The notes beneath the pieces are model-generated. The model made no database searches, was not told the origin of the DNA, and saw nothing but the letters and a program-made list of their open reading frames with translations. Positions 4,790 to 39,810 of a stretch of DNA of 39,810 bases are shown here, in pieces. The stretch's first letter is position 1. Every line of letters starts with the position of its first letter. Source of the DNA: Planctomycetota bacterium. GTDB lineage: Bacteria; Planctomycetota; Brocadiia; SM23-32. Position numbers and translations under genes: made by a program. The stretch covers positions 1 through 39,810 of the forward strand of contig DAOVRD010000001.1 of NCBI GenBank assembly GCA_030628375.1. Reading direction: 5' to 3'.

Positions 4790-7700
4790 ATGACCAAGAG
4801 GGAAGGACTCACAGTCAGTGGCCCTTTTGTGGCCCTGGTCCTGGGGTGTTTCTTTGCTCTGGCGCTTGTGTTTGATGCCGAGCCGACCTCGAGCGGTGCG
4901 GACGTGCCGGCTGCGCTGGCAAGGATCGGGATCCAGAACGGCATCTGCGTCGTTCTTGGTCTGCCGAGAGCGGATGAACCGGGTTTCGTGACGGATCTGG
5001 CGAGGGCAAGCCGTCTGCTGGTGTACTTTCAGTCTCCCAATGCCGGCGAAGTGGCCCTGGTGCAAGAGGCTGCTGAGTCGGCAGGCCTGCTGGGAGAGCG
5101 TATCTTCGTCAACCGGGGCGACTGGACGTCCATCCATCTGGCTGACAACCTTGCCGGTGCAGTCCTGGCGGCACCTTCCGCCCGAAGCGGCATCGCCGAG
5201 GAGGAACTCTTGCGCGTGCTGCACCCGGGCGGGAAAGCCGTCCTCGGCCGGAAAGAGATCGTCAAGCCCCGCCCGCGCGGCACGGACGCCTGGAGCCATC
5301 CCTACCACGGACCGGACAACAACCCGCAGTCGACCGATCAGATCGCGCGTGCGCCCTACCTGACCCAATTCCTGGCCGAACCCATGTTCTCCTGCATGCC
5401 ACAGGTAACGGTCGCGGCAGAGGGCAGGCTTTTCAAGGCATTCGGCCATCTGGCACACGGGGCCAACCAGAACCGCGTGTTGAACACCCTCTTGTGCGTC
5501 AACGCCTACAACGGTGCGATCCTCTGGGCGCGCAAGCTGCAGGAAGGCTTCATGATCCACCGCAATTCCATGATCGCCACACCAGAGACGTTGTATCTCG
5601 CCGACGCCGAGTCGTGCAAGCTGATAGATGCACTCACCGGCCAGATCAGGGAGGAAATAACGATCCCCGAAGGGATCGCGGACGGCCCCGTGTGGAAGTG
5701 GATGGCCTTGGAGGACGGCGTACTGTACGCCCTCGTCGGAGGGCAGGAGGTAAGGGCAGACACCGTGCGTTCGAGGTACCGCGGCCTGGGGCACTGGGGT
5801 TGGCGCATGTGGCAGGGCCACGCCTACGACGACCCGAAGACGAACTTCGGCTTTGGTCGCACGTTCGTCGCCATTGATCCCGGCACCAAGGCGATACTGT
5901 GGGACCATAGCGAGGAGGAAATCCTGGACAGCCGCGGCGTGTGCATGAAGAACGGGCGCATCTATTTCTACAGTCCGGGCGAGCTGCTGGGCTGTCTCGA
6001 TGGCGGGTCAGGCAAGGTCCTCTGGAAGACCTCCGATCCCGATCTGCTGGAAGCCATAGGGCCGGAGGGCCCGGCGCAGCACTGGGACACGGGTTTCGCC
6101 ACCTCGACTTACATCAAGTGCAACGACCGCTTCCTTTTCTTTGCAGGCCCCCAGAGGAGCCGTCTGGTCGCCGCATCCACGGAGGATGGACGACTCGTCT
6201 GGCAGATAGACCACGGCAATTACCAGCTGGTCTTGCATGAAGATGCCTTATATGCCGCAGGGCGGCAGAGGGTGAGCCTCAAGCTGGATTATGAAACGGG
6301 GAAGGTACTGGACCGGTTCGTGAACCGGAGCACGTGCACGCGGGCGACCGGCAGTATAGATTCCATTTTCTACCGTGGCGGGGGGACGTGGCGCGTTGAT
6401 ATGGCCTCCGGCAGGGAGCTGTCTATCACTCCCATGCGGCCCCCGTGCCAGGACGGCGTGCTGATATCCGACGGGCTCCTCTACTGGGGCCCGTGGATGT
6501 GCGGATGCCACCTGTCTCTTTACGGCCACGTCTGCCTGGCGCCGGCCGGGGAGCTTGGCACGGGAGCCGGCTCCGACGATGCCCGTCTCGAACCTGGTGA
6601 CGGCGACCCCGCACTGGTAGCGGAGTTCGAGGCCCATTCCGGCGACTGGCCGACCTATCGCGGCGACAACGCCAGGACGTCGGTTACCAGCGTCCGGCTC
6701 CCTCGGCGCGTGCTCGGGAAATGGACGTTCCAGCCGCCATCGCCAGTTCTTCCCACCGCGCCTATTGCCGTGGGTGATACGGTTTTCGTGGCGGATCGCA
6801 ACGGCGTCGTGCGTGCACTGAACGCTGCCGACGGTGAGCTTCGGTGGAAGGCATACACCGGCGGGCCGGTCTATTTCCCGCCTGCGTTCTGGAATGGGCG
6901 TCTCTACGTGGGCTCGGCGGACGGGTGGGTGTATGCCTACGAGGCGGCCACGGGGCGACGACTGTGGCGCTTCCGCGCGGCGCCCCGGCAGCGGCTGATC
7001 CCCGTCTATGGCAAACTCAGCTCCACCTGGCCGGTGGCCGGCGGAGTGGTTGCGGAGGACGGCGTTGTCTATGCGACCGCTGGCATCGCCAATTATGACG
7101 GCACCCACGTCTATGCCGTGGACGCCGTCACGGGACAGGTCAGGTGGCATAACGGCACTTCGGGCGAGGTGTCCTCAGGAGCGCGGACGGGCGCAAGCTT
7201 GCAGGGCAACTTGTACCTGCAGGAGGGAGAGCTGCGCTTCGCCGGCGGCAATGTCTGTGAGACGGCAAGATACGACCTGCGGACGGGGCGGTGCCTTAAC
7301 GAGCCCCGCAAGCGTGCCCGTGCTCTCTTCCGCACGGTCTTTTACGCTTACTACCCGCGGTACGGGCAGTACCTGCAGCTGGATCATGACCTTCCCGATG
7401 GCAACACGTTGAGCTACGACGTGAGCTATGACCGTCAGCGGCACTCGAGCCTGGCGCTGTTGGCCCCGTGGCCTGCGGGCGCGGCGGAGACCTCGGCCGA
7501 AGGCCGTTGGGTCGCGCCCAAACCGGGCCAGCCCAAACGTGAGGTCCTCTGGGAGAAAAAGGAGTGCCAGTTCCAGAGTTTCGTCGTGGCTCCGGGCGTG
7601 CTGGTGGCCGCCGGTCAGACCGGCTTCACAGATGAAGGGCGCTTCTTCCTGGCGGCCATCAATATTGAGGACGGCTCGGACATCTGGCGCATGCAGCTCC

Positions 7701-7807
7701 CGGCCGCACCGATCAAGGGCGGCACGGCCGTGGATCATGAGGGGCGCATTTTCGTATCCCTGGCGGATGGCCAGGTGCTGTGTTTCGCACCGACCCAGTG
7801 GCGGTGA
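4790..7807 (+). CDS. PQQ-like/BamB-like beta-propeller repeat protein with N-terminal signal anchor and a degenerate methyltransferase-like domain
   Basis: Track ORF 4637-7807. The likely start is ATG 4790 (AGGGGG 9 nt upstream), with ATG 4766 as an alternative. There is a hydrophobic anchor (FVALVLGCFFALALVF). Then comes GICVVLGLPRADEPGFV...LLRVLHPGGKAVL, followed by repeated propeller-like blades (LYVGSADGWVYAYEAATGRRLWRF, VYATAGIANYDGTHVYAVDAVTGQVRW). Confidence 0.8.
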   Translation: MTKREGLTVSGPFVALVLGCFFALALVFDAEPTSSGADVPAALARIGIQNGICVVLGLPRADEPGFVTDLARASRLLVYFQSPNAGEVALVQEAAESAGLLGERIFVNRGDWTSIHLADNLAGAVLAAPSARSGIAEEELLRVLHPGGKAVLGRKEIVKPRPRGTDAWSHPYHGPDNNPQSTDQIARAPYLTQFLAEPMFSCMPQVTVAAEGRLFKAFGHLAHGANQNRVLNTLLCVNAYNGAILWARKLQEGFMIHRNSMIATPETLYLADAESCKLIDALTGQIREEITIPEGIADGPVWKWMALEDGVLYALVGGQEVRADTVRSRYRGLGHWGWRMWQGHAYDDPKTNFGFGRTFVAIDPGTKAILWDHSEEEILDSRGVCMKNGRIYFYSPGELLGCLDGGSGKVLWKTSDPDLLEAIGPEGPAQHWDTGFATSTYIKCNDRFLFFAGPQRSRLVAASTEDGRLVWQIDHGNYQLVLHEDALYAAGRQRVSLKLDYETGKVLDRFVNRSTCTRATGSIDSIFYRGGGTWRVDMASGRELSITPMRPPCQDGVLISDGLLYWGPWMCGCHLSLYGHVCLAPAGELGTGAGSDDARLEPGDGDPALVAEFEAHSGDWPTYRGDNARTSVTSVRLPRRVLGKWTFQPPSPVLPTAPIAVGDTVFVADRNGVVRALNAADGELRWKAYTGGPVYFPPAFWNGRLYVGSADGWVYAYEAATGRRLWRFRAAPRQRLIPVYGKLSSTWPVAGGVVAEDGVVYATAGIANYDGTHVYAVDAVTGQVRWHNGTSGEVSSGARTGASLQGNLYLQEGELRFAGGNVCETARYDLRTGRCLNEPRKRARALFRTVFYAYYPRYGQYLQLDHDLPDGNTLSYDVSYDRQRHSSLALLAPWPAGAAETSAEGRWVAPKPGQPKREVLWEKKECQFQSFVVAPGVLVAAGQTGFTDEGRFFLAAINIEDGSDIWRMQLPAAPIKGGTAVDHEGRIFVSLADGQVLCFAPTQWR

Positions 7808-7825
7808 CACGAACCCTCCCCGCCG

Positions 7826-8398
7826 TCATTGGCCTGCGTCCGGGGAACGCGGCCAGCCCAGCGTTTCGCAGACCTTCTGCCAGCGCTCGGCCATGCCCTC
7901 GCAGAACAGGAACGGCTCGAAGCCGAGCTTCAGGTAACTCTTGATTGCCGGCAGGCGGCCGTCGTCCGTCTGGAGGTAGATGCGGCGGTAGCCGGCTTGC
8001 ACTAACCGACTGACGACCGCGGCGCAGACGGCCAGCCCCAGCCGCTTCCCCTTGTGTTCCGGGTCGCCGGCCACCCAGCCGAGCACGCCGCCGCAGGGAT
8101 GCAATTCGGACGGGCTATGCTGCGCCATGGCCGTTGCGACCGCTTTGCCCGTTGCGCGGTGGACGACGAGGAAGAAGCCGTCCGACAGGATGCTGGGCCG
8201 CTCCCGCTCCAGGCGATCGTGGTCCCAGTTGTCGAACCCGGCCCTGGCCATCAACTGCAAGTATTGGGACTCGTCGGTGTCCTCGTAGCAGCGAAGCTCA
8301 TACCCCTCCGGCAGTTCCGGCCTCGGCGGGCGGTCGAGCAACCTCTCCGGCCATATCATCTGCAGTTGCTTCTGGCGCCCGGCGCCTTCCCATGTCAT
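7826..8398 (-). CDS. GNAT family N-acetyltransferase
   Basis: 190-aa ORF with a GNAT motif A-like stretch (GWVAGDPEHKGKRLGLAVCAAVVSRLVQAGYRRIYLQTDD...AIKSYLKLGFEP). ATG at 8359 (MIWPERLL) is an alternative start, because the first 13 codons are a duplicated junction segment. Confidence 0.85.
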   Translation of the reverse strand: MTWEGAGRQKQLQMIWPERLLDRPPRPELPEGYELRCYEDTDESQYLQLMARAGFDNWDHDRLERERPSILSDGFFLVVHRATGKAVATAMAQHSPSELHPCGGVLGWVAGDPEHKGKRLGLAVCAAVVSRLVQAGYRRIYLQTDDGRLPAIKSYLKLGFEPFLFCEGMAERWQKVCETLGWPRSPDAGQ

Positions 8399-8428
8399 CT
8401 ACAGTTGCCTCTGGCGCCCGGCGCCTTC
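8356..8428. repeat. Tandem duplication (34-bp unit, period 39 bp) spanning the deacetylase stop / GNAT start junction
   Basis: TCATCTGCAGTTGCTTCTGGCGCCCGGCGCCTTC (8356-8389) versus TCATCTACAGTTGCCTCTGGCGCCCGGCGCCTTC (8395-8428), 2 mismatches. Minus-strand translation gives ...EGAGRQRQL* at the end of the deacetylase and MTWEGAGRQKQLQM at the start of the GNAT. Confidence 0.9.
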
Positions 8429-9247
8429 TCGCACCCGAGCGAGCAGGTCGCCGTACGTGCCGGCCCGCAGGCCGAGTCCGCGAACGTGGGAGAAGGTGAG
8501 GTCCAGCATCTCCATTTCCGAATCGAACCTGTTCAATGACCATGGGTGCCAGACGAGCGAGACGAAGCTCAACTCCTCGGAGACGGCCCGCTCGATGAAC
8601 AACCGGTAGATGGCAAACTCCTCTGCCGGGGTGGTGATGAAGGCCGGCGGGATGGCTTCGGGCATCTCCGGCGGCCAGAGGGTGAGCCGCCTCGGCCCCC
8701 ACGCATTGTTGTCCTTCAACAGGTTCTCGTGCCAGCCGTGCACCGGCAGCTCCCACAGGTCCGGGAATCCCTGCTCTTCGTAGCTGAAGGGCTGGTTGAG
8801 GGGCGCCGGCAGGGCGAAGTCCTTCGCCCAGGACATGCTGCTGACGTATCGGAAGCCCGCCTCACTGACGAACTCCAGGGCCCGCGGCGCGCCCTTGAGC
8901 CCGTCCGGCCATCCGCAGCCCGGCCGCAGTCCCAGGCAAGGCCGCTCGAACACACGCTCCACGGACTGCTTTCCGAGAAATATCTCGTCACGTATCTGCT
9001 GCTCGGAGGCGGCCGGCCCGCAGAAAGGGTGGTCGCGCAGCATCTTGTGCGAGTAGGTGTGCGAGGCGACCTCGAAAAGCGGATCGTCCAGCAGCCGGCG
9101 GTATTCCTCGGGATCCGCTTCGAGCACCTTGCCCGTTATGAAGAACGTGGCCGGCAGTTCGTGTCGGCGGTGCACCTGCACTATCTTGCGGCAGGCCGCC
9201 AGACACTCGGCCGATTCGGCGTCGTATGCGGCGATGTAGAGCGTCAT
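8399..9247 (-). CDS. Polysaccharide deacetylase (CE4-like) family protein
   Basis: 282-aa ORF: ATFFITGKVLEADPEEYRRLLDDPLFEVASHTYSHKML...WHPW. This matches the pattern of NodB-homology deacetylases. Confidence 0.8.
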   Translation of the reverse strand: MTLYIAAYDAESAECLAACRKIVQVHRRHELPATFFITGKVLEADPEEYRRLLDDPLFEVASHTYSHKMLRDHPFCGPAASEQQIRDEIFLGKQSVERVFERPCLGLRPGCGWPDGLKGAPRALEFVSEAGFRYVSSMSWAKDFALPAPLNQPFSYEEQGFPDLWELPVHGWHENLLKDNNAWGPRRLTLWPPEMPEAIPPAFITTPAEEFAIYRLFIERAVSEELSFVSLVWHPWSLNRFDSEMEMLDLTFSHVRGLGLRAGTYGDLLARVREGAGRQRQL

Positions 9248-23839: not shown

Positions 23840-23867
23840 GTAGGGGCACGGCGCGCCGTGCCCTTAC
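23840..23867. repeat. REP-like element: GTAG + 20-bp perfect palindrome (intergenic copy)
   Basis: GTAGGGGCACGGCGCGCCGTGCCCTTAC, in the divergent region between the URO-D-like and DUF1284 genes. Confidence 0.85.
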
Positions 23868-29438: not shown

Positions 29439-30023
29439 ATGAAAGTGGCGCTTTGTGCTGTTGTTCTAGCCGTTGTCGTTCTTTGCGCTCTTGACCCTAC
29501 GGCGGTCGCGTGGGCCTTGCCCGCGTTGATCGCGCTCCTCGGTGCTCTCGTGGGCTGCGAGGTGACAGTATGGCTCTGCAGATGTCAGGCCGAGACGGAG
29601 CTCAGGCAGGCACTCAAGGAGTTCCCTCTCTGGCTGGCTAGCACACTTGATGTATCCCGACTGGCGCGGGTGGGCATTAAGAGTGACATGGGTCGCCGAG
29701 AACTCCTTTCATCTTCACCCCATGCCGACAAGCATGCCAATGCCTTCGTGGACCTGACCTTCCTCGTCAAGGGGCAATGGCTCTCGCAAGTCGAAAGGTG
29801 CCGCGGGACGCTTCTGGCGTATGCGTCGAAGCGAGCCCTGGCACGCATTGATAAGCAGTTGGCAGCGGACTACCAGCAGGTAGAGCAGTCGCGTCAGAAT
29901 TCGCTCAACAAGTTCCACGACGAAACGGCAGCAGATCTGGAGAAGATCGACGCGAGCTGTGCCAAGTGGTTTCGAGAAGCCGTGTCCACACGTTTGGGGT
30001 CGGACTGGAGAACGTCACTCTAG
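29439..30023 (+). CDS. Hypothetical membrane-anchored protein with helical/coiled C-terminal region
   Basis: ATG at 29439 in track ORF 29376-30023. Two hydrophobic helices (VALCAVVLAVVVLCAL, ALPALIALLGALVGCEVTVWL) are followed by a charged helical region. Lower-G+C patch, no recognisable family. Confidence 0.55.
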   Translation: MKVALCAVVLAVVVLCALDPTAVAWALPALIALLGALVGCEVTVWLCRCQAETELRQALKEFPLWLASTLDVSRLARVGIKSDMGRRELLSSSPHADKHANAFVDLTFLVKGQWLSQVERCRGTLLAYASKRALARIDKQLAADYQQVEQSRQNSLNKFHDETAADLEKIDASCAKWFREAVSTRLGSDWRTSL

Positions 30024-30911: not shown

Positions 30912-31075
30912 GGGGTTCCGCAGAGGCCGCGATCACATGACCCCGCGTCTGCCTGCTAAGCCTATTCGTACGTGACCCCGTTCCGACTGCGATTATACTT
31001 GAGCGATCAAGCACCGTCCAGAGAGGAATCCTGGGAAGCTTGCAAGATTCTTCAGAACACGGCCAACACCAATGT

Positions 31076-31285
31076 CTATCGGCCGAGATGGACCGTACGG
31101 GGATCGGCCTTTCCCCCCTCGGTGGCCTGGAGGGTGCGAGAGAATGGAAGCGACAGGTCATAGCCGGATCTCTTGACACCTTGCTTTTCAAGCTCCTTGA
31201 TCAAAGCCAGGCTCTGTTCGAGCAAGCGGGTGTCGATGAGAGGGTTCGCTTTCACCAGTTCTTTCTTGTTTGGTTTCTTGCCCAT
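31076..31285 (-). CDS. Small hypothetical protein (69 aa) immediately downstream of the protease
   Basis: ATG at 31285 lies 5 nt after the protease TGA. MGKKPNKKELVKANPLIDTRLLEQSLALIKELEKQGVKRSGYDLSLPFSR is K/E-rich and protein-like. The last roughly 20 codons run into high-G+C flanking DNA. Confidence 0.5.
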   Translation of the reverse strand: MGKKPNKKELVKANPLIDTRLLEQSLALIKELEKQGVKRSGYDLSLPFSRTLQATEGGKADPRTVHLGR

Positions 31286-31290
31286 TCTTA

Positions 31291-32193
31291 TCACGCCCTC
31301 TTGTGAAAGCTCAGGGGGATAAACCGTAAGCGGGTGTGAATCACGCCCTCTGCAGCGCGTTTGTCCCTGTAATCCTTGAGAAGAAGGTAATATCTTGTGA
31401 TTCTCTCCTTCAACTCGTCGTTGGCCCCGAAGTCTTCAACGCGAAGCCCGACTTTGCGCCTCAGGATTTCCATGGAAATACCGCGTGAGTGGGAGTGCCA
31501 CTTCTTGGTGTCATTCAGCAATTCGGCGATTTGCGCAGCGCGCCGCACTTTCATCTGCCGGGTTACCTTAACCCCGCGAGTCTCGGTGCTTTTCCATGTT
31601 CTAAACTTATAGCGAACAAGCCAGTCTTTGAGCAAGGTGATAGTCAAATTCCGCGACTGTTCATATTGGTGCATCTCGGCGGGATCAAAACGTTCTATCA
31701 AATACGCCGCTTCTACAGCCGTCAGCTTGCCTTCTCTTGATTTGTCAAGCAGTTCCTCGTATTTCGCTAAGTACCCCAGCGCTGGCACCATTTTGCCATC
31801 GGGCTTTTCAATCTGTGGGTCAATTGGCCCCAGCACCGAAAAGTAGTCCATGTGGAGAGCATCGCCGGACATCACAAGAACCGTCCCGGCAGACTTGGCA
31901 AAATTCGGGATTATGAACTCTACTCGCCTATAATGGTGTCGAAGGAGAGCTACAAGGCGCTCGACCACGTCGATGTACCCCCCCGGCGTCTCCAACACCA
32001 AGCAGAGCTTCTTGCCCCGGCGTTTCCTAGTATGGAGCTCCTCTATAGCACTCCGAACCATATCATCCGCGCCGTACGCCAGTAATCCCACAAACGACAA
32101 CACATCGCCGCCGACAGTGGATTCGAGCGCCGTTATGTGGCCCTTGAGTTGCGCTTCAACGACGATGTTGGCGCTGGGTGCGGGCTTTGCCAC
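31291..32193 (-). CDS. SDH-family (PF01972-like) ClpP/crotonase-fold serine protease
   Basis: In-frame GTG at 32193 (AGGAGA 6 nt upstream) within track ORF 31291-32514. The upstream part of that ORF overlaps a better small gene in another frame. KLCLVLETPGGYIDVVERLVALL...IPNFAKSAGTVLVMSGDALHM is the S49/SDH-type nucleophile region. Confidence 0.75.
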   Translation of the reverse strand: MAKPAPSANIVVEAQLKGHITALESTVGGDVLSFVGLLAYGADDMVRSAIEELHTRKRRGKKLCLVLETPGGYIDVVERLVALLRHHYRRVEFIIPNFAKSAGTVLVMSGDALHMDYFSVLGPIDPQIEKPDGKMVPALGYLAKYEELLDKSREGKLTAVEAAYLIERFDPAEMHQYEQSRNLTITLLKDWLVRYKFRTWKSTETRGVKVTRQMKVRRAAQIAELLNDTKKWHSHSRGISMEILRRKVGLRVEDFGANDELKERITRYYLLLKDYRDKRAAEGVIHTRLRFIPLSFHKRA

Positions 32194-32263
32194 AACCTTT
32201 CTCCTGAAACCGCAGCGCGAGGAGCCAATTGGCCTATAATAAGGTGATGGGGCCAGAGCAGGT

Positions 32264-32488
32264 TCATCGCTGTTTGGACCAGCGCGCTTGGGCAGCTTTT
32301 CGCGCGATCTCTTTGCGTCTTTCAGCGGAAAGCCTTTGCGCCCGCGCTGGCCCGCCCTTGAGTCCACCAAGCCGCCCGAGTGCGACAGCCGCAGGATTCC
32401 TCTCGTCGCCGGTTGCTTCTGCGACGATCCGTTTGGCGGTAAGGTTCTCGGCTTCCGCCCTCTTATGCGTGGTTTCCTTCTTCGCCAT
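32264..32488 (-). CDS. Small basic protein with KGG/histone-H1-like C-terminal motif (putative nucleic-acid binding)
   Basis: ATG at 32488 in track ORF 32264-32518: MAKKETTHKRAEAENLTAKRIVAEATGDERNPAAVALGRLGGLKGGPARAQRLSAERRKEIARKAAQARWSKQR. Confidence 0.65.
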   Translation of the reverse strand: MAKKETTHKRAEAENLTAKRIVAEATGDERNPAAVALGRLGGLKGGPARAQRLSAERRKEIARKAAQARWSKQR

Positions 32489-32494
32489 GCCATC

Positions 32495-32522
32495 ATCATA
32501 CCATGCTTGACCACACAAGCAA
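32495..32522 (-). promoter_or_regulatory. Candidate sigma70-type promoter giving a leaderless or near-leaderless transcript
   Basis: Minus strand: TTGCTT (32522-32517), 16 nt spacer, TATGAT (32500-32495), then only 6 nt before the ATG at 32488. Confidence 0.45.
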
Positions 32523-32548
32523 GCAGAAAGTCTAGTAAAACTGACCCA

Positions 32549-33439
32549 CTACCCGCAGGGCCCCTGATTCGAGTTGACCAGGGGCACGATCCGGCTGCGG
32601 CCAGCGGGGCGGACCCCTTCCCTTAGCTGACGCCGGCTGCACGCGGGGAGGCGGGCGAACTGTCGCCGCAGGCGGGCGCGCGCCCACGCTTCGATAGGCG
32701 CGGGACCGGCAGGGATGAGGGGCTGGGCCTCGCCGAAGTCCTGGTTCCGCGCGCCGAAGGCTCGATGGCTCCGCACGTTATCGCCGCCGCCGCTGATGTG
32801 GTGCAGGCCCCCGGCCCAGCGATAGATGTAGCTGATGTCCCGGTCGGCCGGGTTCCAGGCGTAAAGCTCCCCGGCCTTGCGGAACTTCGCGAGCAAGGCC
32901 TTGGCCTGCCCGCTGACCTTCGGCGGGTAGCCGCCCAGCTCGAGGGCGCGCCGCCGGCCGAACACCATCTGCCCCTCGAAGACGTTGTGGCAGGGACCAC
33001 GCAACTCAAATCCTTCACGCGGGCCGACGCCCCACCACGCGGCGCCCGGCTTGACGCATCCCGTCCCGCATTGCGCGGGAGGACCCCCGCGCTCCAGAAG
33101 CGCCGAAACACACTGTCGGAGATGCCAGGGGAGGTAAAGGTCGTCGTCATCCCAGTGGGCGACCAACGGTGTCTCGGCCAACTCCAGAAGGGCCTGGCGT
33201 TTGTGGCCCAGAGTCGGGTAACGGGTCGGCGCATTTCGAACCTGCACGAACGGCAGATGAGGGCCCGTCAGAAGCGGAACCGGCGCGTCGTTCAGGATCA
33301 ACAGGCGCTTCTCGCCCGAGTAGTCCTGGAGCAGGAAGCAGGCGATGGCGTCGCGCAGTCGCTCGAAGCGGCCGTAAGTGGGGCAGAGGCACGTCACAGC
33401 AGGCCAGAGGCTGGAGACTGGAGGCTGCAGGTCAGACAT
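32549..33439 (-). CDS. Glycosyltransferase (GT2-like) with a repeat-encoded N-terminus
   Basis: ATG at 33439 (GGAGGA 8 nt upstream). MSDLQPPVSSLWP is encoded by repeat DNA, then AVTCLCPTYGRFERL...LILNDAP...HWDDDDLYLP (DxD). The start overlaps the upstream stop by 8 nt. Confidence 0.75.
   Translation of the reverse strand: MSDLQPPVSSLWPAVTCLCPTYGRFERLRDAIACFLLQDYSGEKRLLILNDAPVPLLTGPHLPFVQVRNAPTRYPTLGHKRQALLELAETPLVAHWDDDDLYLPWHLRQCVSALLERGGPPAQCGTGCVKPGAAWWGVGPREGFELRGPCHNVFEGQMVFGRRRALELGGYPPKVSGQAKALLAKFRKAGELYAWNPADRDISYIYRWAGGLHHISGGGDNVRSHRAFGARNQDFGEAQPLIPAGPAPIEAWARARLRRQFARLPACSRRQLREGVRPAGRSRIVPLVNSNQGPCG
33401..33434. repeat. GC-rich GGCTGGAG/CTGCAG-family repeat (copy a)
   Basis: Contains GGCTGGAGACTGGAGGCTG at 33409-33427, an identical 19-mer to 38119-38137. 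Confidence 0.85.
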
Positions 33440-34265
33440 CGGAACGGTCCTCCTCATGATCTACGCGGTCTACGGGCTTGCCATCACGGTAGACGATCTC
33501 GAAGCGCTGCGGACGGTGCCTCAAGGCGGTGGGTCGCTCCGGGGCACCCTGGACCCATCGCCGCAGCTTGTCCTGTCGGCTGCGCAGGAGCATGTTGACA
33601 GCGCGCCGGTGGATATCGTCCTCGTCCATTTCTGCCAGGCCCGCGAAGTCCTCCAGCCGCCCCGGCGCGCCGGCGCGCAGCCACTTGCGCACATACTGGC
33701 GCTCAACGAGCCGCCGGTCCGGCTTGACGCCCTTGACGTGGAACAGCAGGGGCCCGCCGCTCCTGGCCGGCTTCAGCTTGCCATCGAGCTGGTACTTCGC
33801 GGTGCTCCCCCCGCGCCAGGCGACATCCTTCAAGAGGCGGCGGTTCCAGTAGACGTGGCAGCGGTCGTAGTGGCGCAGGCGCTGGGTGGTGTGGTCGAAG
33901 TCGCCCCACATCTCGCACAGCTCCAGGCGCACGAGCGGCCGGGGGCCTTTGGCGATCTCGCGCAGCCGGTGGGCGGCGTACTCGCAGAGCACGTCATCCG
34001 CGTCGAGCCAGAACAGGTGGTCGGAGTCGGTCGCCTCAAGCAGGCGGTTGCGGGCCCGCACCCAGCCGAGTTGCTGCGCGCCTTCGTAACGGATCAGGCG
34101 CACGTGCCGATGCCGGGCGGCCGCATCGAGGGCCACGTCGGCCGTGTGGTCGCTCGAACAGTCGTCCAGCACGACGATCTCGTCGAAGTGGTCGGCGATG
34201 CTGCGCAGGCAGAAGCCGAGCGTGTAGTCGTCGTTGTGCGCGGGGATCAGGGCGGTGAGCTTCAT
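33432..34265 (-). CDS. Glycosyltransferase family 2
   Basis: ATG at 34265 within track ORF 33432-34424. MKLTALIPAHNDD...VVLDDCSSDHT...FWLDADD. ATGA overlap with the upstream gene at 34262-34265. Confidence 0.85.
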   Translation of the reverse strand: MKLTALIPAHNDDYTLGFCLRSIADHFDEIVVLDDCSSDHTADVALDAAARHRHVRLIRYEGAQQLGWVRARNRLLEATDSDHLFWLDADDVLCEYAAHRLREIAKGPRPLVRLELCEMWGDFDHTTQRLRHYDRCHVYWNRRLLKDVAWRGGSTAKYQLDGKLKPARSGGPLLFHVKGVKPDRRLVERQYVRKWLRAGAPGRLEDFAGLAEMDEDDIHRRAVNMLLRSRQDKLRRWVQGAPERPTALRHRPQRFEIVYRDGKPVDRVDHEEDRSDV

Positions 34266-34951
34266 GATGCGCTTCCGGTGGGCATCCCGCAGTCGCGGGA
34301 CCGTGCCCCTACGGCAACGGGTTCGCGGCGGTCGTCGTTGTGGGCGGGGGAAAACGGGACAGGCACCCCAGGGTCGGGATTGCCAGTCCCTGTTTTCCCG
34401 TTCTTGTCCACCCACCAGACCCACGCCGGGCCGACCTTCACCAGCTCCCCGAACGCCTCATCCACGGCGCGTTTGACGCCCCAGGCGTGGCACCAGCGCC
34501 CGTAGTCGTGTCCGAGCAGCGTGCCCCCTGCGCGCACCTTGGGCCACCAGAGCGCGATGTCCGCCCGCACGTACTCGTAGGCGTGGTTCGCATCCACGAA
34601 GACGAAGTCCAGGGCGCCGTCGGCGATCGTGCCGGCTGCCTCGCGGCTGAAGGCACGCACCACTACGACGCGGTCCCGGAAAGGCGCAACGCGCCTGGAG
34701 AACCTGCGGTAGGCCCGATCGAGCAGGCGCTGCGACGGCCACTCGATCCTGCGCCCGGCCCTGTCCGAGTCGTAGCCGGGGTAGTGCTGCCACGGGTCCA
34801 CGCAGTACAGCGTCCTCAGTCCCGGCAGGCGCGTGAGGAGCACCGCAGAGGTCTGGCCCTCCTTGACGCCGATCTCGGCGCCGACCGAATGCGGCCGGCT
34901 CGCCAGGACCTCGGCCACCACTCCCCACCGGCGCTTCGCCCTGATGGTCAT
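34262..34951 (-). CDS. Class I SAM-dependent methyltransferase (Methyltransf_24-like) with a repeat-derived C-terminal tail
   Basis: ATG at 34951 within track ORF 34262-35353, with ATGA overlap to the upstream GT8 stop. GAEIGVKEGQTSAVLL...LDFVFVDANHAYEYV. The tail ...REPVAVGARSRDCGMPTGSAS reads through a half REP. Confidence 0.8.
   Translation of the reverse strand: MTIRAKRRWGVVAEVLASRPHSVGAEIGVKEGQTSAVLLTRLPGLRTLYCVDPWQHYPGYDSDRAGRRIEWPSQRLLDRAYRRFSRRVAPFRDRVVVVRAFSREAAGTIADGALDFVFVDANHAYEYVRADIALWWPKVRAGGTLLGHDYGRWCHAWGVKRAVDEAFGELVKVGPAWVWWVDKNGKTGTGNPDPGVPVPFSPAHNDDRREPVAVGARSRDCGMPTGSAS
34297..34312. repeat. Half REP-like element
   Basis: GGGACCGTGCCCCTAC, whose reverse complement is GTAGGGGCACGGTCCC. 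Nearly identical to the half copy at 36929-36946. Confidence 0.7.
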
Positions 34952-35697
34952 CGCAGGGGGTCCTCCCATCGCCTGGCCCCGGTGTGGTGGATCAAGCCCG
35001 GCACCTCGCCCTTCCAGCCGAAACTGTGCTCCGCGCGCGACCAGAGGCGCACGCGGCAGCCGATCTCCGCAACGGCCAGCGCCAGCGCGTACTGGTCCAG
35101 CATCCACCAGGGGGATTTTGCGGGCTGCAGCTGCGGGTCGCTCACGCCGGCATGCCGGATGGCTTCCATCCAGCGGGGCCAGGATTGCGCCAGCGAACGG
35201 GCAACCTGGCCGCGGCACAAGAACGCGCCGGAGTTGAAGCCCTGGACCGGCGGGAGCCCGAAGTGGGAACAGAGGGCGGCCCAGCGCCGCCGGCTCAGGA
35301 ATCCGCCCGCCAGCCAGGCCGTCGCAACGCGGGCGCTGAAGTCGGCGTCGCACGCAAGAAGCTCGCCCAGCGACCCACGCACGACCGTGTCTGCATCCAG
35401 GAACAAGACCGAGGCCGCCGTCACATCTGCCAGGGCCGCAGGCTTGATCCCGGGGGGGTAGTCGCCGCCCTCGACCTCGACCACGCGGACGCGCACTCCG
35501 GGATTGTGCCGCACGGCCGTGTAGATGCTGCCGGCCGCCATCCGGCGGTACTTCTGGTCGGGCGTGACGGCGTAGACAACCGTCAGGCTGCAGGCTGCAG
35601 ACTGCAGGCTGGAGGTACCTCCGGCCTCCGGCCTCCCGTCTCCGGCCTGCTGCCTCCGGCCTCCAGTCTCCAGCCTGCCGTTCGTTCCGTCAGGCAT
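34948..35697 (-). CDS. Glycosyltransferase family 8-like with a 35-aa repeat-encoded N-terminal extension
   Basis: ATG at 35697 (8-nt overlap with the upstream stop) within track ORF 34948-35859. MPDGTNGRLETGGRRQQAGDGRPEAGGTSSLQSAACS is followed by LTVVYAVTPDQKY...LFLDADTVV...FNSGAFL. No canonical start codon lies nearer to the GT8 core. Confidence 0.75.
   Translation of the reverse strand: MPDGTNGRLETGGRRQQAGDGRPEAGGTSSLQSAACSLTVVYAVTPDQKYRRMAAGSIYTAVRHNPGVRVRVVEVEGGDYPPGIKPAALADVTAASVLFLDADTVVRGSLGELLACDADFSARVATAWLAGGFLSRRRWAALCSHFGLPPVQGFNSGAFLCRGQVARSLAQSWPRWMEAIRHAGVSDPQLQPAKSPWWMLDQYALALAVAEIGCRVRLWSRAEHSFGWKGEVPGLIHHTGARRWEDPLR
35584..35680. repeat. GC-rich GGCTGGAG/CTGCAG-family repeat (copy b), hairpin-capable
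   Basis: CAGGCTGCAGGCTGCAGACTGCAGGCTGGAGGTACCTCCGGCCTCCGGCC...CCTCCAGTCTCCAGCCTG. It has a central GGAGGTACCTCC palindrome and contains the family core in reverse orientation. Confidence 0.85.
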
Positions 35698-36517
35698 AGC
35701 CCAGGGCCTCCAGCTTCTGCCCGGTCGTCTCCTGCTCGAGGCGGGAGCCCTCGAGGCACAGCCAGGGCACGCGCCAGAGTTCTTCGTAACCGGTGTAGCC
35801 GCATTCGTGGCCGAACTTGCCGTCTTCGCCGAGCAGCTCGCCGTGGTCCGACGTGACAATCACCCGGCGCGGGGCGAGCTGCGAGGCCAGCAAGCGGGCC
35901 GCGTGCCAGACCAGCTCGAGGTTCGCGCGGTAGGCGGCGCGGAGCTGCTCCCAGGTGATCTCGCCACGCTTGACGGCGCGTCCCGGCCGGCGCAGCTTGT
36001 GGCAGGCCTCGCCGAACTCACCGCCGGCGGGGGCCCCTGCGCCTCCCCATCGGGCGAAGGCCAGGGGCACCGCGCCGATGTAGGGCGAGTGCGGCTGCAC
36101 GTAGTGGACGACGAGGGGGCGGCCCTCCAGCCTGCCCATCTGCACGTGCGCGGCGACGACGCCGTTGACGCTCAGCGGATGCACGCTCGGGATCTGGTGC
36201 GCCGTGAATCGCCCCCACTGGCTCTGCCAGACGGGCACCATCTCGATCCCCGCCTGCCGGCCGGCGGGCAGGTCCAGCCCGCACTTGCGCACTTCGCGGT
36301 CCACCACGGGATTGGCGCTGAAGTAGACGGCGCCGCGTTCCTGGAGGAGCGGGCCGGCAGCGCGGATCCAGGCGGGCGTGCACGGCCCGGCCGCGCGCAC
36401 GACCTCCGCGACGGCGCACGTCTCGGCGAAGGTGTCGGCGCGGCAGGCGTCCAGGACGATCAGCACATCCCAGTCCTCCTCGCGCAGCGCTATCAACTGC
36501 TCGCGCACGTCCACCAC
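35690..36517 (-). CDS. Alkaline-phosphatase-superfamily (sulfatase/phosphotransferase-like) protein
   Basis: 275 aa: DVLIVLDACRADTF...VVHYVQPHSPY...VIVTSDHGELLGEDGKFGH follows the metal-site order of the alkaline phosphatase superfamily. Confidence 0.75.
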   Translation of the reverse strand: MVDVREQLIALREEDWDVLIVLDACRADTFAETCAVAEVVRAAGPCTPAWIRAAGPLLQERGAVYFSANPVVDREVRKCGLDLPAGRQAGIEMVPVWQSQWGRFTAHQIPSVHPLSVNGVVAAHVQMGRLEGRPLVVHYVQPHSPYIGAVPLAFARWGGAGAPAGGEFGEACHKLRRPGRAVKRGEITWEQLRAAYRANLELVWHAARLLASQLAPRRVIVTSDHGELLGEDGKFGHECGYTGYEELWRVPWLCLEGSRLEQETTGQKLEALGYA

Positions 36518-36562
36518 CTTTCGTAGGGGCCCGGCAAGTTCATCCCGAGCGAAGTCGAGGGG

Positions 36563-36696
36563 CCGTGCCCACAGCAGTCAGCAGACAGTAGGTAGCAGAC
36601 TGCAGGCCGTAGGCTGCAGGCTGGAGGCTTGTGCGCCTCTGGCGCATACCTGCCGTCTGCAGCCACCAGCCTCCAGTCTGACTTCTGCCGTCCTAC
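36563..36696. repeat. GC-rich repeat (copy c): imperfect ~100-nt inverted repeat (REPIN-like) filling an intergenic gap
   Basis: Centre is TGCGCCtctGGCGCA (36632-36646). By hand alignment the flanking arms match about 24 of 32 positions as reverse complements. The minus-strand GTAG at 36693-36696 supplies the stop of the small membrane ORF. Confidence 0.75.
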
Positions 36697-36878
36697 TTCT
36701 CCTTCGCGGGCGAGCGCATGCCCAGCTTGAGTGCGGCATCCTCGACGGTGATCGCGCCGACTTCCGCCATGATGATGCCCGGAATCCAGAACGGGTGTCC
36801 CGTCAGGGCGGCGCTCACGCACGCGCCGACGGTCAGCCAGAACTTCCTCGACTGCAACAGTGCCTTGATGAAGCCCAT
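36693..36878 (-). CDS. Small membrane protein (61 aa), unknown function
   Basis: ATG at 36878 with a strong GAGGAGG RBS 6 nt upstream, within track ORF 36693-36959. MGFIKALLQSRKFWLTVGACVSAALTGHPFWIPGIIMAEVGAITV has two hydrophobic segments. Confidence 0.65.
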   Translation of the reverse strand: MGFIKALLQSRKFWLTVGACVSAALTGHPFWIPGIIMAEVGAITVEDAALKLGMRSPAKEK

Positions 36879-36928
36879 GATGGACCTCCTCTTCCTGAAG
36901 GAAGGGCATCCGCCGTCGCCAAGGCTAT

Positions 36929-36946
36929 GGCGGACCGTGCCCCTAC
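36929..36946. repeat. Half REP-like element whose GTAG provides the stop codon of the 884-codon ORF
   Basis: GGCGGACCGTGCCCCTAC. Minus strand reads ...ACG TAG GGGCACGGTCCGCC. Confidence 0.75.
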
Positions 36947-39597
36947 GTGCGACTGGCAAGCCATTCCTTGATGAGGGTGATGTAGCGGTCGCGGCGTTGA
37001 TAGTGGCCCGACTCAGACGATGCGCTCGACCCGCCCTGCGACAGCTCCTTCCACCGGTGCCCCAGCCGTGCGGGCACCAGGTGGTGGTCCTTCCGGCCGC
37101 CGCTGATGCAGAGGCTCAGGTAGACGTCGTCCTCGCGGTGGCTCAGTCCCTCGATCCCGGCGAGCAGCGGGATCTCCAGCGGCACCTTCGCCAGCAGCGC
37201 CCGACGCAGCAGCATGAAGCGACCCTTGATGATGTCGCACCTGGTGCCCTTGTGCGTGCCGTTGTGGTGGCGGCCGCGCCCGTAGTCCTTGCCCTCCACC
37301 TGGCTCCACCCGAAGAAGCCGACGATGCCGTCCGGGCACTCCTCGCCGCTGGCGGCCATCGCGTCCTCCAGCACGCGCTTGTCCTTGAACGTCAGGTCGT
37401 CGTCCATCGAGCAGACGTAGTCCGTCTCGGCCAGGCTGGCCAGCCACCAGCGCGGGAAGCAGCCCAGGTTCCGGCCGGCCTGCACCTCCAGGGCCACCAG
37501 CGGGTTCTCGACGATGGGCCGCTGCGGCCCGCCGTTCTGGCTGAACTGCACGGGGTCACCGTTGTTCCAGAGAAACACCTGCGCCTTGACGGTCTGCGCG
37601 GCGATGCTGTCCAGGACCCGGCCGATATTCTCCGGCCGCTGCCAGTTCAGAAGACACACAGTCACGAGGGGCTTCCCGTTGCCGTGGGCGCTTCGCGAAG
37701 CGCCCCTACTGCCTGCGGCCTGCTGTCTGCTGCCTGCTGTCTGTTTGCGCTCCTTCTTCAGCTCCTCGTCCACGATCTGCATGCGGTCGGCCGAGGGGTT
37801 GACGAGGATGCGCCCCCCGGGTCTCAGCAGGCCCTGTGCAGCGGCCTTGCACCGGTCCTGCATCTCGCCTGCAATCAGCACCAGGTCGAAGCCGTCCCCC
37901 CGCCACTTGGCCGGACAACTGGCGTAGGGGCACGGCGCGCCGTGCCCTGCCGTGAGTTTCACCTGTGCCAGCTTGATGCCGTTCGCCTGGCAGATGTCGT
38001 GCCAGTTGCCGGCGCGGTGGCCGGGCATCTCGATGCAGAAGACCTCCGCCTTCGGCAGCAGGCGCCGCACCAGCAGCGTGGACTCCCCCGGCCGCCATTG
38101 CAGAACACGCAGACGGCAGGCTGGAGACTGGAGGCTGGAGACCGCAGGTACAGCTTGCTTCTTGGCCGTACCTCCTGCCCGCAGCCTACGGACTGCGGCC
38201 TCGATTTCTGGTAGCCATGCGTGCTCGGGATGCGGCTCGGTGATGGGGGCCCGCTTGCCGCAGAGGTGCGTGAACACCTCCTGGACGGGGCGCACCCACG
38301 GCCGAGCGCCGGGCACGGCGCGCCGTGCCCCTACAGTCTCCAGCCTCCGGTCTCCAGCCTTCCGCGCGTCCTGCGCGCGGAACGCCTCCGTGCTGATGCG
38401 GCGCGTCTCCTCGGGGCCCAGCCACTTGCGGCACCAGGGTTTGAAACGCTGCTCCCAGACCTTGCGCCCGAACAGCGTGGCCGTGCCGTGGCAGACGTTG
38501 CGCCAGTTCTCGCGCCCGGCGTCCGGCACGGGGTTCTTGCTGCGCTCGCCCTTGCCGCAGCGGTACCAGTGGCGGAACACCACGTCGCGGCTGAAGTAGA
38601 TGGGGATGTCCATCAGGAACGCCTTGATGGCCAGCACCTGCTCGCTGAATCCCCAGCGCCCGGCGATGTCATCCCAGAGGTGGCCCGTGGCGGCTTCGAG
38701 CTTCTCGGCGGTGACGCGGCTCATGGCGTAGCCGGCCCCCATCGGCGCCGGCGAGCGCGTCCACTCCTGCGGCAGCGTCTTCGCCAGGTGCAGCCACTTC
38801 GGCTGGAAGCCGTCGTTCCGGTTGGTGAACAGGTCGCAGCAGAACAGGCGGCTGCCGATCAGCACGTCCTTGCCGTCCTCGACCTTCAGCCCGTTGCTGC
38901 CGGCGCAGACGATGCACGTGTCCTGCAGTGCGCGCCGCGCCAGCGTCTCCAGGCCCCCCTCCTTCGCCGAGGCTTCGGCGGGCAGGCCCTCGGGCTTGCC
39001 CGCCATAGTCCCGCCCTGCGGGACGACGGCGGGGAACCGCATGTGGGCGTCGTGGAAGGTGACCACGTCCCCCCGGGCCGCTTTCCAGCCCGCGTTGCGT
39101 GCGCGGCCGACGCCCTGAGGTTTTTTGTGCCGCACCAGAACCACACCCTTCACCCCGGCCGCGAAGTCGCAGGAGCCGTCCGTCGAGCCGTCGTCCACCA
39201 GCACGATCTCAAGCAGGGGCGGTTCGCGAACTTTAGCCGCCTTGGCGACCGCCCCTACCGACGCGCGGAGGGACTCGACGGTGCGGCGGACCTCGGCGCC
39301 CTCGTTGAAGGCGATGATCACCGCGCTGATGCGCGGTGAGGCCGGAGGCCGGGGGCTGGAGGCCGGAGGTACGGCGCGCGGCTCGTAGAACTCACAGCCG
39401 GGGCCGCAGCGCCTGGCCGGGACGGTGGCGCCCTTGCGGGTCGGGTGGCGGCAGACGATCCGCTCGCCGCAGCAACTCGTGTGCTGCCGCACTCCCGCGT
39501 GGCGGCAGTCGAACTTGCTGGGCACGGCACGCCGTGCCCCTACGGAACGCTTCGCGCTCTCTTCTGCCCTTCGCAACTTGTTACGCAGGTTCGGCAT
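36943..39597 (-). CDS. 884-codon multidomain ORF with repeat-encoded linkers: Cys-rich N-terminus + GT2 (DxH type) + methyltransferase-like domain + second GT2-like domain. It may instead be 2-3 adjacent genes.
   Basis: Domain A: SAVIIAFNEGAE...VLVDDGSTDGS...VTFHDAHMRF. Domain B: RVLQWRPGESTLLVRRLLPKAEVFCIEMPG...GFDLVLIAGE...LLRPGGRILV. Domain C: VTVCLLNWQRPEN...CSMDDDLTF. The domains are separated by REP-like and GC-rich repeats with no stop codon, and no convincing internal RBS plus start was found. Confidence 0.7.
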   Translation of the reverse strand: MPNLRNKLRRAEESAKRSVGARRAVPSKFDCRHAGVRQHTSCCGERIVCRHPTRKGATVPARRCGPGCEFYEPRAVPPASSPRPPASPRISAVIIAFNEGAEVRRTVESLRASVGAVAKAAKVREPPLLEIVLVDDGSTDGSCDFAAGVKGVVLVRHKKPQGVGRARNAGWKAARGDVVTFHDAHMRFPAVVPQGGTMAGKPEGLPAEASAKEGGLETLARRALQDTCIVCAGSNGLKVEDGKDVLIGSRLFCCDLFTNRNDGFQPKWLHLAKTLPQEWTRSPAPMGAGYAMSRVTAEKLEAATGHLWDDIAGRWGFSEQVLAIKAFLMDIPIYFSRDVVFRHWYRCGKGERSKNPVPDAGRENWRNVCHGTATLFGRKVWEQRFKPWCRKWLGPEETRRISTEAFRAQDARKAGDRRLETVGARRAVPGARPWVRPVQEVFTHLCGKRAPITEPHPEHAWLPEIEAAVRRLRAGGTAKKQAVPAVSSLQSPACRLRVLQWRPGESTLLVRRLLPKAEVFCIEMPGHRAGNWHDICQANGIKLAQVKLTAGHGAPCPYASCPAKWRGDGFDLVLIAGEMQDRCKAAAQGLLRPGGRILVNPSADRMQIVDEELKKERKQTAGSRQQAAGSRGASRSAHGNGKPLVTVCLLNWQRPENIGRVLDSIAAQTVKAQVFLWNNGDPVQFSQNGGPQRPIVENPLVALEVQAGRNLGCFPRWWLASLAETDYVCSMDDDLTFKDKRVLEDAMAASGEECPDGIVGFFGWSQVEGKDYGRGRHHNGTHKGTRCDIIKGRFMLLRRALLAKVPLEIPLLAGIEGLSHREDDVYLSLCISGGRKDHHLVPARLGHRWKELSQGGSSASSESGHYQRRDRYITLIKEWLASRT
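37686..37709. repeat. REP-like element, variant hairpin (inside ORF)
   Basis: GGGCGCTTCGCGAAGCGCCCCTAC, whose reverse complement is GTAG + GGGCGCTTCGCGAAGCGCCC (perfect 20-bp palindrome). Confidence 0.85.
37710..37747. repeat. GC-rich repeat (copy d) with internal CCTGCTGTCTG duplication
   Basis: TGCCTGCGGCCTGCTGTCTGCTGCCTGCTGTCTGTTTG. Encodes KQTAGSRQQAAGS on the minus strand. Confidence 0.75.
37924..37947. repeat. REP-like element (inside the methyltransferase-like domain)
   Basis: GTAGGGGCACGGCGCGCCGTGCCC on the plus strand. Translated on the minus strand as TAGHGAPCPYAS. Confidence 0.9.
38109..38200. repeat. GC-rich GGCTGGAG/CTGCAG-family repeat (copy e)
   Basis: Contains GGCTGGAGACTGGAGGCTG (38119-38137) and the inverted pair GCAGGTAC...GTACCTCCTGC. 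Encodes ...GGTAKKQAVPAVSSLQSPACRL. Confidence 0.85.
38311..38334. repeat. REP-like element (inside ORF, opposite orientation to 37924)
   Basis: GGGCACGGCGCGCCGTGCCCCTAC. Translated on the minus strand as VGARRAVP. Confidence 0.9.
38335..38360. repeat. GC-rich repeat (copy f), abutting a REP-like element
   Basis: AGTCTCCAGCCTCCGGTCTCCAGCCT, the reverse orientation of the family core. Confidence 0.8.
39338..39372. repeat. GC-rich repeat (copy g)
   Basis: GAGGCCGGAGGCCGGGGGCTGGAGGCCGGAGGTAC. Encodes VPPASSPRPPASP just before the GT2 core. Confidence 0.7.
39520..39544. repeat. REP-like element (one central mismatch), codons 19-26 of the 884-codon ORF
   Basis: GGGCACGGCACGCCGTGCCCCTAC. Translated on the minus strand as VGARRAVP. 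Confidence 0.85.
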
Positions 39598-39810
39598 CCA
39601 GCTTCAGCCCCTTCTCCATTGCAATCTCGCCAGCCAGCTGCGCCGAGATGAAACCCATCTCGACCAGTTGGACCAACAAGCCCTCCTTCGAAATCACTAC
39701 CGCGATGCGGTTCACAGCAGCCTCTACAATCGGCTTCTTCTCTGCCCGCTCGCGTTCGAGCCGGGCGGCCTGCTGCGCCTCGGCCTCGGCCTCCAGGTCC
39801 ACTGGGTCCA
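39581..39810 (-). CDS. Hypothetical protein, probably N-terminally incomplete (frame open to window end)
   Basis: ...DLEAEAEAQQAARLERERAEKKPIVEAAVNRIAVVISKEGLLVQLVEMGFISAQLAGEIAMEKGLKLDAEPA. The track start at 39802 is a GTG and the frame stays open to 39810. It overlaps the next start by 17 nt. Confidence 0.5.
   Translation of the reverse strand, partial: DPVDLEAEAEAQQAARLERERAEKKPIVEAAVNRIAVVISKEGLLVQLVEMGFISAQLAGEIAMEKGLKLDAEPA

Follow-up and report, generated by a model that had tools for sequence, protein, structure and literature searches.

GTAG-tagged palindromes of the RAYT-associated REP type lie in frame within a glycosyltransferase gene of a Brocadiia-type planctomycete

A conserved GTAG beside a hairpin is the architecture of repetitive extragenic palindromes (REPs), which are mobilised by RAYT, or TnpA_REP, transposases of the IS200/IS605-like Y1 type. 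The closest described system to the elements reported here is TnpA_REP subclass 2.4, equivalent to RAYT Group 4 of Bertels et al. Its proteins, of ~194 amino acids (aa), share the motifs NH[IFV]H, WQ and YIxNNP; its hosts are Cyanobacteria, Bacteroidetes and various other phyla; and the stems of its REPs, described as “canonical long” hairpins, have three G-C pairs at the bottom (Quentin et al. 2018, PMC6006769). The same survey described double-foot REPs, bounded by 5' GT[AG]G and C[TC]AC 3', as well as REPs lying in frame inside tnpA_REP genes, in which a variable REP-bearing insertion is located between HuH and Y. Group 4 RAYTs were found in 17 bacterial classes (Bertels et al. 2017, PMC5581495), and tagged members of a GTAG REP superfamily were reported from eight phyla, with Planctomycetes and the PVC group at large among them (Di Nocera et al. 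2013, PMC3733652). The latter study also reported intragenic GTAG REPs that do not disrupt genes, sometimes two per open reading frame (ORF); these were most numerous in Opitutus terrae of the PVC superphylum and, the authors argue, are tolerated in flexible regions. Here, we analyze a stretch of 39,810 nucleotides from a Planctomycetota metagenome-assembled genome (MAG; GenBank assembly GCA_030628375.1, contig DAOVRD010000001.1, positions 1 to 39,810 of the forward strand; hereafter “the window”), in which four GTAG-tagged palindromes lie in frame inside a single 884-codon glycosyltransferase gene. An initial annotation of this DNA considered REPs extragenic by definition, a statement that the published in-frame cases (PMC3733652, PMC6006769) render outdated.

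The core of the element is a 20-nt perfect palindrome, GGGCACGGCGCGCCGTGCCC, found exactly at 23844-23863, 37928-37947 and 38311-38330 of the window and, with one central mismatch, at 39520-39539. These four matches compare with a chance expectation of 0.01, and none of 100 shuffled sequences yielded four. A sister palindrome, GGGCGCTTCGCGAAGCGCCC, occupies 37686-37705. The sites are those named in the initial annotation, whose coordinates 23840 and 37924 include the GTAG foot. GTAG (CTAC on the opposite strand) flanks each copy on one side, i.e., the window copies are single-foot. In all five copies the foot directly abuts a stem of 8-10 bp, the base of which is GGG...CCC, namely three G-C pairs. 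As single-stranded DNA (ssDNA), each 24-mer forms a stem of 8 bp and leaves its GTAG foot unpaired (-9.9 to -10.1 kcal/mol, z ~ -3.2 to -3.7).

Four of the five copies are contained in the ORF at 36943..39597 on the minus strand. Copy 1 (39520..39543, minus strand; a single-foot GTAG with GGGCACGGCGTGCCGTGCCC, bearing the central mismatch) encodes VGARRAVP at aa 19-26, and copy 2 (38311..38334, minus strand; a single-foot GTAG with the exact palindrome) encodes the same peptide at aa 422-429. Copy 3 (37924..37947, plus strand) is the sole antisense copy and is read as GHGAPCPY at aa 551-558. The sister REP (37686..37709, minus strand; GTAG with its own palindrome) encodes SRGASRSAH at aa 630-638. 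The presence of four copies in both orientations within one frame, with these translations, thus agrees with the original description. The fifth copy (23840..23867, plus strand) is almost two-sided (GTAG...TTAC, nearly double-foot) and is located outside the gene cluster in a probable divergent intergenic region, among ordinary cellular genes that include a URO-D-like gene. We estimate a probability of roughly 85% that these palindromes are genuine GTAG-tagged REPs of the long/double-foot type of TnpA_REP subclass 2.4, lying in frame in an intact gene.

The 884-codon ORF is one genuine conserved gene. Its product comprises a Cys-rich N-terminus, a GT2 domain, a predicted Rossmann-like middle domain and a C-terminal glycosyltransferase (GT) domain. 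More than 45 homologues of 700-990 aa, 36-62% identical to the query, align with at least 85% of its length, including the N-terminal helix, and the next homologue after the query itself is just 53-62% identical. All of the ~100 invariant residues of a 24-sequence alignment are kept in the query, including the DD, DAHMR and DDD motifs. The same gene is annotated as a single 884-aa product on an ENA metagenome scaffold (ERZ23498673, scaffold_361), and a partial protein, 100% identical, was deposited from a “Candidatus Brocadiae” MAG. Ahead of the first REP, the query and its homologues share an MPxLRxxL helix at the N-terminus; the true start is therefore the ATG at 39597, and copy 1 is intragenic.

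Long spurious ORFs are common at high GC, classical REPs are mainly intergenic, and separate Methyltransf_24 and GT2 genes follow downstream in the cluster, all of which could be taken to mean that the frame consists of several genes, or is a decaying pseudogene, with the REPs in untranslated spacers. We consider this highly improbable, since the three-domain architecture is found as a single polypeptide in the homologues, which come from independent assemblies, and conservation is unbroken across the supposed junctions. Moreover, the secondary-structure elements on either side of the copy at aa 551-558 belong to a single folded domain, the conserved helix that starts at the ATG comes before the copy at aa 19-26, no invariant residue has been lost, and the GC content at third codon positions is 0.89.

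An AlphaFold model built on the 24-sequence alignment (mean pLDDT 79) provides further detail on this protein. The nearest structural neighbours of the modelled N-terminal GT domain are polypeptide GalNAc-transferases, which hints at a protein target of glycosylation. In the model, the middle domain adopts a Rossmann-like beta-alpha-beta fold. The initial annotation called this domain methyltransferase-like, a label that we could not confirm: aa 430-610 gave no Pfam match and no PDB sequence match, and showed no similarity to the Methyltransf_24 protein of the same cluster. PF13578 is present in a few distant homologues of the 884-aa protein. Ahead of the GT2 domain, a family-wide Cys-rich segment, C-x(11)-CC-x(6)-C-x-H ... 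C-x(3)-C, spans aa 27-66 (window 39400-39520) and may represent a zinc-binding module.

Comparison with the homologues shows that the insertions are lineage-specific and located in variable or unstructured segments. At aa 551-558, the query reads LTAGHGAPCPY where the homologues read LGPD------Y (alignment A1), and the TAC of the copy 3 foot encodes the nearly invariant Tyr558. In the model, aa 551-557 form a coil between a strand (541-545) and a helix (557-564). The model confidence drops below a pLDDT of 50 at aa 14-27, 417-430 and 622-640, which are the sites of the other three copies. Copy 1 is situated after the conserved N-terminal helix and ahead of the Cys-rich domain, where the homologues differ from one another; copy 2 occupies the linker joining the N-terminal GT domain to the middle domain and is absent from most homologues; and the sister REP lies in a highly variable linker preceding the C-terminal GT domain.

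Other family members carry the same peptide. Homologue P0022 contains VGARRAVP four times, once in the same variable linker as copy 2 and once within the middle domain, P0010 contains one REP peptide inside its GT2 domain, and P0024, P0025 and P0008 contain near-copies. At the DNA level, the P0022 locus (L120) carries GTAG+GGGCACGGCG[C/T]GCCGTGCCC eight times, including four within the orthologous gene, alongside GTAG hairpins with other interiors; L120 has 13 copies in ~9 kb. Further REP copies are present in the DNA of loci L121 and L152, and the modules of L152 and L153 contain few or none. The recurrence of the peptide could suggest that VGARRAVP and GHGAPCPY are ordinary conserved motifs of the family and that their palindromy is incidental. 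This explanation is effectively refuted: the peptides are not conserved at these positions, and their places in the alignment differ between members; the same DNA is translated in three different frames within the 884-aa protein and in two among the RAYT loops described below; and the identical 24-28-mer is found in many phyla with unrelated, often apparently non-coding flanks. Three reading frames and non-homologous positions thus identify an element acting at the nucleotide level rather than a protein motif. For annotation, it is useful in practice that peptides like VGARRAVP, RGTARRAPT and GHGAPCPY mark REP DNA when they appear in predicted proteins.

The motif is repeated far beyond this genome. 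We found the exact 24-mer at no fewer than 118 loci in GTDB species-representative genomes, spanning well over ten named phylum-level groups. The hosts include Chloroflexota, Nitrospirota, Acidobacteriota, Gemmatimonadota, Poribacteria, Omnitrophota and Desulfobacterota, as well as Planctomycetota (including Brocadiaceae), Pseudomonadota, Bacteroidota, Methylomirabilota, Latescibacterota and an Uhrbacteria MAG of the candidate phyla radiation (CPR). Several MAGs have multiple REP loci, and one Brocadiaceae MAG has at least five. The usual form elsewhere is a 28-nt double-foot palindrome, GTAG-hairpin-CTAC, embedded in wholly unrelated and frequently AT-rich flanks; in other genomes, this 28-mer represents at least about half of all copies. 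Sister hairpins of the form GTAG-GGGC...GCCC-CTAC, with different interiors, co-occur at REP loci. Compared with random positions, REP sites are under-represented in long ORFs, yet they are not excluded from them, and many of the 24-28-mer sites in many phyla are apparently non-coding. The exact 24-mer was also present in 30 IMG/VR viral contigs (L122-L151), where single-foot copies account for 84% of the total, vs 47% in the genome loci (L001-L118). Judged by this distribution of sequences, with unrelated flanks in loci of many phyla, the REP is a discrete mobile unit.

Attempts to link the REP to additional features of its surroundings gave negative results. When ORFs lying up to 2.5 kb from the motif at the 118 loci were compared all-vs-all by BLASTP, no recurrent neighbour emerged that could represent a cargo gene. 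The idea that the REP flanks “four-helix-bundle / 23S IVS protein” genes received no support. Similarly, a rule by which intragenic copies are single-foot and intergenic ones double-foot was rejected, as a crude spanning-ORF test placed 12 double-foot and 10 single-foot copies in the middle of ORFs.

In other genomes, this REP is found in direct physical linkage with RAYT genes. An HUH-motif scan and a profile hidden Markov model (HMM) search both detected RAYT genes at four of the 118 REP loci, in unrelated genomes, compared with a rough chance expectation of ~0.35: L047 (3881-4504, minus strand), L083 (2606-3037, minus strand), L086 (~7300-7907, plus strand) and L060 (860-1519, plus strand). 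In L047, L083 and L086, the REP lies within the RAYT ORF, in frame and directly past the HUH motif. In L060, it is found just 3' of the RAYT stop codon, and the loop of the protein holds two other GTAG hairpins. All four proteins match NCBIfam REP_Tyr_transpos (E 1e-15 to 1e-20) and Pfam Y1_Tnp. Judged by eye, their ORFs of ~200-220 aa contain the signature motifs (MPNHFH; WQRNYYEH or WQPNYWEH; YIHNNP, YIVENP or YVQTNP) and a REP peptide in the loop, thereby agreeing with subclass 2.4 in motifs, length and REP-bearing loop. The suggestion of the initial annotation that the palindromes are RAYT-type REPs is thus supported.

The RAYT family in question is large, with more than 7,900 clusters, and carries the JGI name “REP element-mobilizing transposase RayT”. 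Simple pattern matching showed that at least 76 of the 120 listed homologues encode a GTAG-GGGC...GCCC-CTAC-like hairpin, in several frames, in the loop that follows MPNHxHGII; the search was word-seeded and hence biased to query-like loops. The exact REP is present in 28 of the 120, read in one frame in 11 and in another in 19, with two proteins using both. The core sequences of REP-carrying RAYTs are 46-88% identical to one another. In many of the homologues, the loop also shows tandem partial duplications of the REP 3' arm, e.g., APTSTPCAPTSTPC and RAPTVHRAPTVRRAPT.

Several observations weigh against our interpretation. The REP_Tyr_transpos scores of the four proteins, 55-71 bits, are below the curated cut-off of 80. 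The insertion at aa 551 adds a net six residues rather than the eight that a 24-nt unit encodes. The databases searched contained no near relative with an empty site. Finally, the profile HMM and HUH-motif scans found no RAYT in the window, as the initial annotation had also stated, nor in the related module and prophage loci or the 30 viral loci; a trans-acting enzyme of the host organism is therefore assumed.

From what is established about IS200/IS605 and TnpA_REP enzymes (summarised in PMC6006769), we infer the following course of events. The unit consists of a 4-nt GTAG guide foot beside a 20-nt GC-rich hairpin with three G-C pairs at the bottom of its stem. A Y1/HUH transposase encoded elsewhere on the host chromosome would recognise hairpin and foot on ssDNA, e.g., at replication forks, and this host RAYT would copy or insert units in trans. 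Single-foot units of 24 nt (eight codons) have landed in an intact glycosyltransferase gene that has Mu-like prophage relatives. The inserts would persist because they lengthen a loop or inter-domain linkers by 6-8 harmless residues, with neither a stop codon nor a frameshift, and they would be translated as “REP decorations”, while purifying selection would remove insertions in structured regions. The hairpin is free of stop codons in every frame, and TAG arises only from the sense-strand GTAG in one frame; most insertions should therefore be readable. If so, the gene is a very clean case from nature in which a mobile hairpin has extended a multi-domain enzyme, predicted to remain functional, by short peptides. 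The element has struck orthologous genes independently in different lineages, which helps to show how REPs and RAYTs contribute to protein length variation.

The copies are unevenly distributed along the window, which holds five copies and three remnants in its 39.8 kb: four full copies and all three remnants lie in the last 5.5 kb, vs one copy in 31 kb of flanking cellular genes. The first remnant, GTAGGGGCACGGTCCGCC (36929..36946, minus strand; repeat family D4), is degenerate and retains a 13-nt 3' arm and foot at 36934-36946; the TAG of its GTAG foot is the stop codon of the 884-aa ORF. The second, GTAGGGGCACGGT (34300..34312, minus strand), lies within the 3' end of the Methyltransf_24 gene and likewise consists of a 13-nt 3' arm plus foot, each of the two having one mismatch. 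The third, GTAGGGGCCCGGC (36523..36535, plus strand; repeat family D11), another 13-nt 3' arm plus foot, is located in the spacer upstream of a 272-aa gene. The half copies first reported near 34297 and 36929 are therefore real, and a weak one reported at 30020 was not recovered within two mismatches. The only inverted pair (37924-37950 / 38308-38334) encloses 357 nt of conserved coding sequence, and the copies are singletons. An Rfam search of the window returned no match. The arms at 38114-38148 and 38330-38364 were considered as ends of a miniature inverted-repeat transposable element and rejected: the 181 nt between these inverted simple-repeat arms encode a conserved protein segment, and the arms are thus independent short insertions.

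Orientation is also strongly skewed. Across the window (37686-39543), L120 (568-17702), L152 (8831-10106) and L121 (2580-2603), single-foot copies are sense rather than antisense by 21:2, the coding strand bearing GTAG on the 5' side. Were in-frame TAG selected against, the reverse skew would be expected, and we therefore read the bias as the mark of a strand-specific insertion mechanism. The skew, the density of the module and that of L120, and the GTAG REP arrays that flank exopolysaccharide genes in Thauera (PMC3733652) would also suit hairpins retained for a function, as mRNA-stabilising or processing structures, as pause sites, or as hot spots of recombination and diversification in a rapidly evolving glycosylation module. 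This seems unlikely to us: REP positions vary between homologues, and the L152 and L153 modules are nearly or wholly REP-free, which argues that no site is under purifying selection. In addition, the RNA fold of a palindrome is identical in both orientations, so the strand bias points to insertion rather than to RNA function.

A REP that is more than passive junk is a similarly speculative prospect. (Pro)phages could serve as vehicles or preferred substrates, e.g., with RAYTs acting on replicating phage ssDNA, or insertion could routinely supply variation in linkers and loops and so diversify phage-borne glycosyltransferases. This idea is motivated by the exact 24-28-nt identity across phyla, set against RAYTs that are only 46-88% identical, and by the dense, strand-biased module in the window and L120. 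The cross-phylum identity and the presence in prophage and viral DNA bear on what RAYTs do for their hosts and on how they spread.

The surroundings of the gene differ along the window. From position 1 to ~31,000, the genes are ordinary cellular ones, including a sulfatase, GH4, GFO/IDH/MocA and PQQ propeller genes. The right end is a glycosylation module that consists of the 884-aa gene followed by the Methyltransf_24 and GT2 genes. In L120, L152 and L153, the orthologue lies directly 3' of genes for a Mu-like prohead protease, gpT capsid, Gp36, tail tube and very large tail-fibre-like proteins, and is followed by a similar module and then by non-phage genes. The phage-context stretches are 1-9500 in L120, 1-10000 in L152 and 1-10000 in L153, and their counterpart in the window is 31300-39810. 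Because of this synteny, the contig end has probably truncated a Mu-like prophage, of which the window module would be the right end. Searches against PHROGs gave only weak matches for the cluster, to a “moron”-type glycosyltransferase. The GC content falls to 0.53 at 31001-32000, beside an SDH_protease-like gene, vs 0.60-0.71 elsewhere, and this dip may mark where the module or prophage meets the chromosome. No tRNA genes were found in the window.

Two further kinds of repeat were observed. Period-7 tandem arrays (CTGGAGR, CCTGCTG, GAGGCCG, CAGGCTG and similar) are concentrated in the module, at 33407, 35584, 35618, 36571, 36595, 37705, 38121, 38334 and 39338 (range 33407-39369), with only one elsewhere in the window. 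Four of them are in frame in the 884-aa ORF (~aa 77-87, 414-422, 486-493 and 619-631), mostly in low-confidence segments of the model, and two directly abut a REP foot. A general link between REPs and such arrays was rejected, as only 3 of 123 REP sites elsewhere have a period-7 array within 40 nt, which by a rough estimate is about the chance level. The arrays resemble the heptamer repeats known from cyanobacteria as short tandemly repeated repetitive (STRR) sequences. Separately, a 39-nt unit is duplicated in tandem at 8351-8428 (two copies, 92% match), spanning the junction between the ORFs 7826-8398 and 8399-9247 on the minus strand.

How do these elements relate to known in-frame palindromes? 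The unit described here, 24-28 nt long, GTAG-tagged and hosted by Planctomycetota, is unlike the Rickettsia palindromic elements (RPEs) of obligate intracellular Alphaproteobacteria, among which RPE-1 is much longer (~100-150 bp). The resemblance to RPEs proposed in the initial annotation holds for in-frame behaviour, as RPEs are likewise in-frame palindromes in surface-exposed segments of apparently functional proteins (refs 13, 14 of PMC3733652); it does not extend to the RPE consensus, the length or the Rickettsia host. We view the likeness as one of analogous mechanism in a separate family.

The REPIN-RAYT systems of Pseudomonas and E. coli (Groups 2 and 3; Bertels & Rainey 2011, PMC3116915) share the GTAG foot and hairpin and the multi-copy nature of the short repeats, with foot and hairpin being recognised by a single-copy Y1 transposase. 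REPINs, however, are extragenic pairs of inverted REPs separated by a spacer, and they are specific to lineages and inherited vertically (PMC3116915). The present copies are singletons, several are intragenic, and their sequence is identical across phyla; they are thus not REPINs. In the REP-decorated proteins of Di Nocera et al., the emphasis is on replication and repair genes and on REP dimers of 20-30 aa, whereas here four 8-codon singletons decorate one glycosyltransferase gene. The specific REP does not occur in the main text of that paper (“gtagggg”: 0 occurrences), and text searches of a literature library recovered neither the full palindrome nor the REP-encoded peptides.

The agreement with subclass 2.4 is the closest, comprising a GT[AG]G foot at the base of a long GC-rich hairpin, a double-foot form elsewhere, and a scattered distribution over many phyla. 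The survey of that subclass focused on Cyanobacteria and Bacteroidetes, whereas the host here is a Brocadiia-type Planctomycetota MAG and the target a glycosyltransferase gene with prophage relatives; unlike in the survey, the window copies are single-foot and the window is without a RAYT gene. Overall, the locus is a clean further example of a documented phenomenon and not a novel kind of element. What it adds, modestly, is a REP-bearing gene that follows Mu-like phage genes in three relatives, a strong sense-strand bias, and a REP sequence that is identical across phyla.

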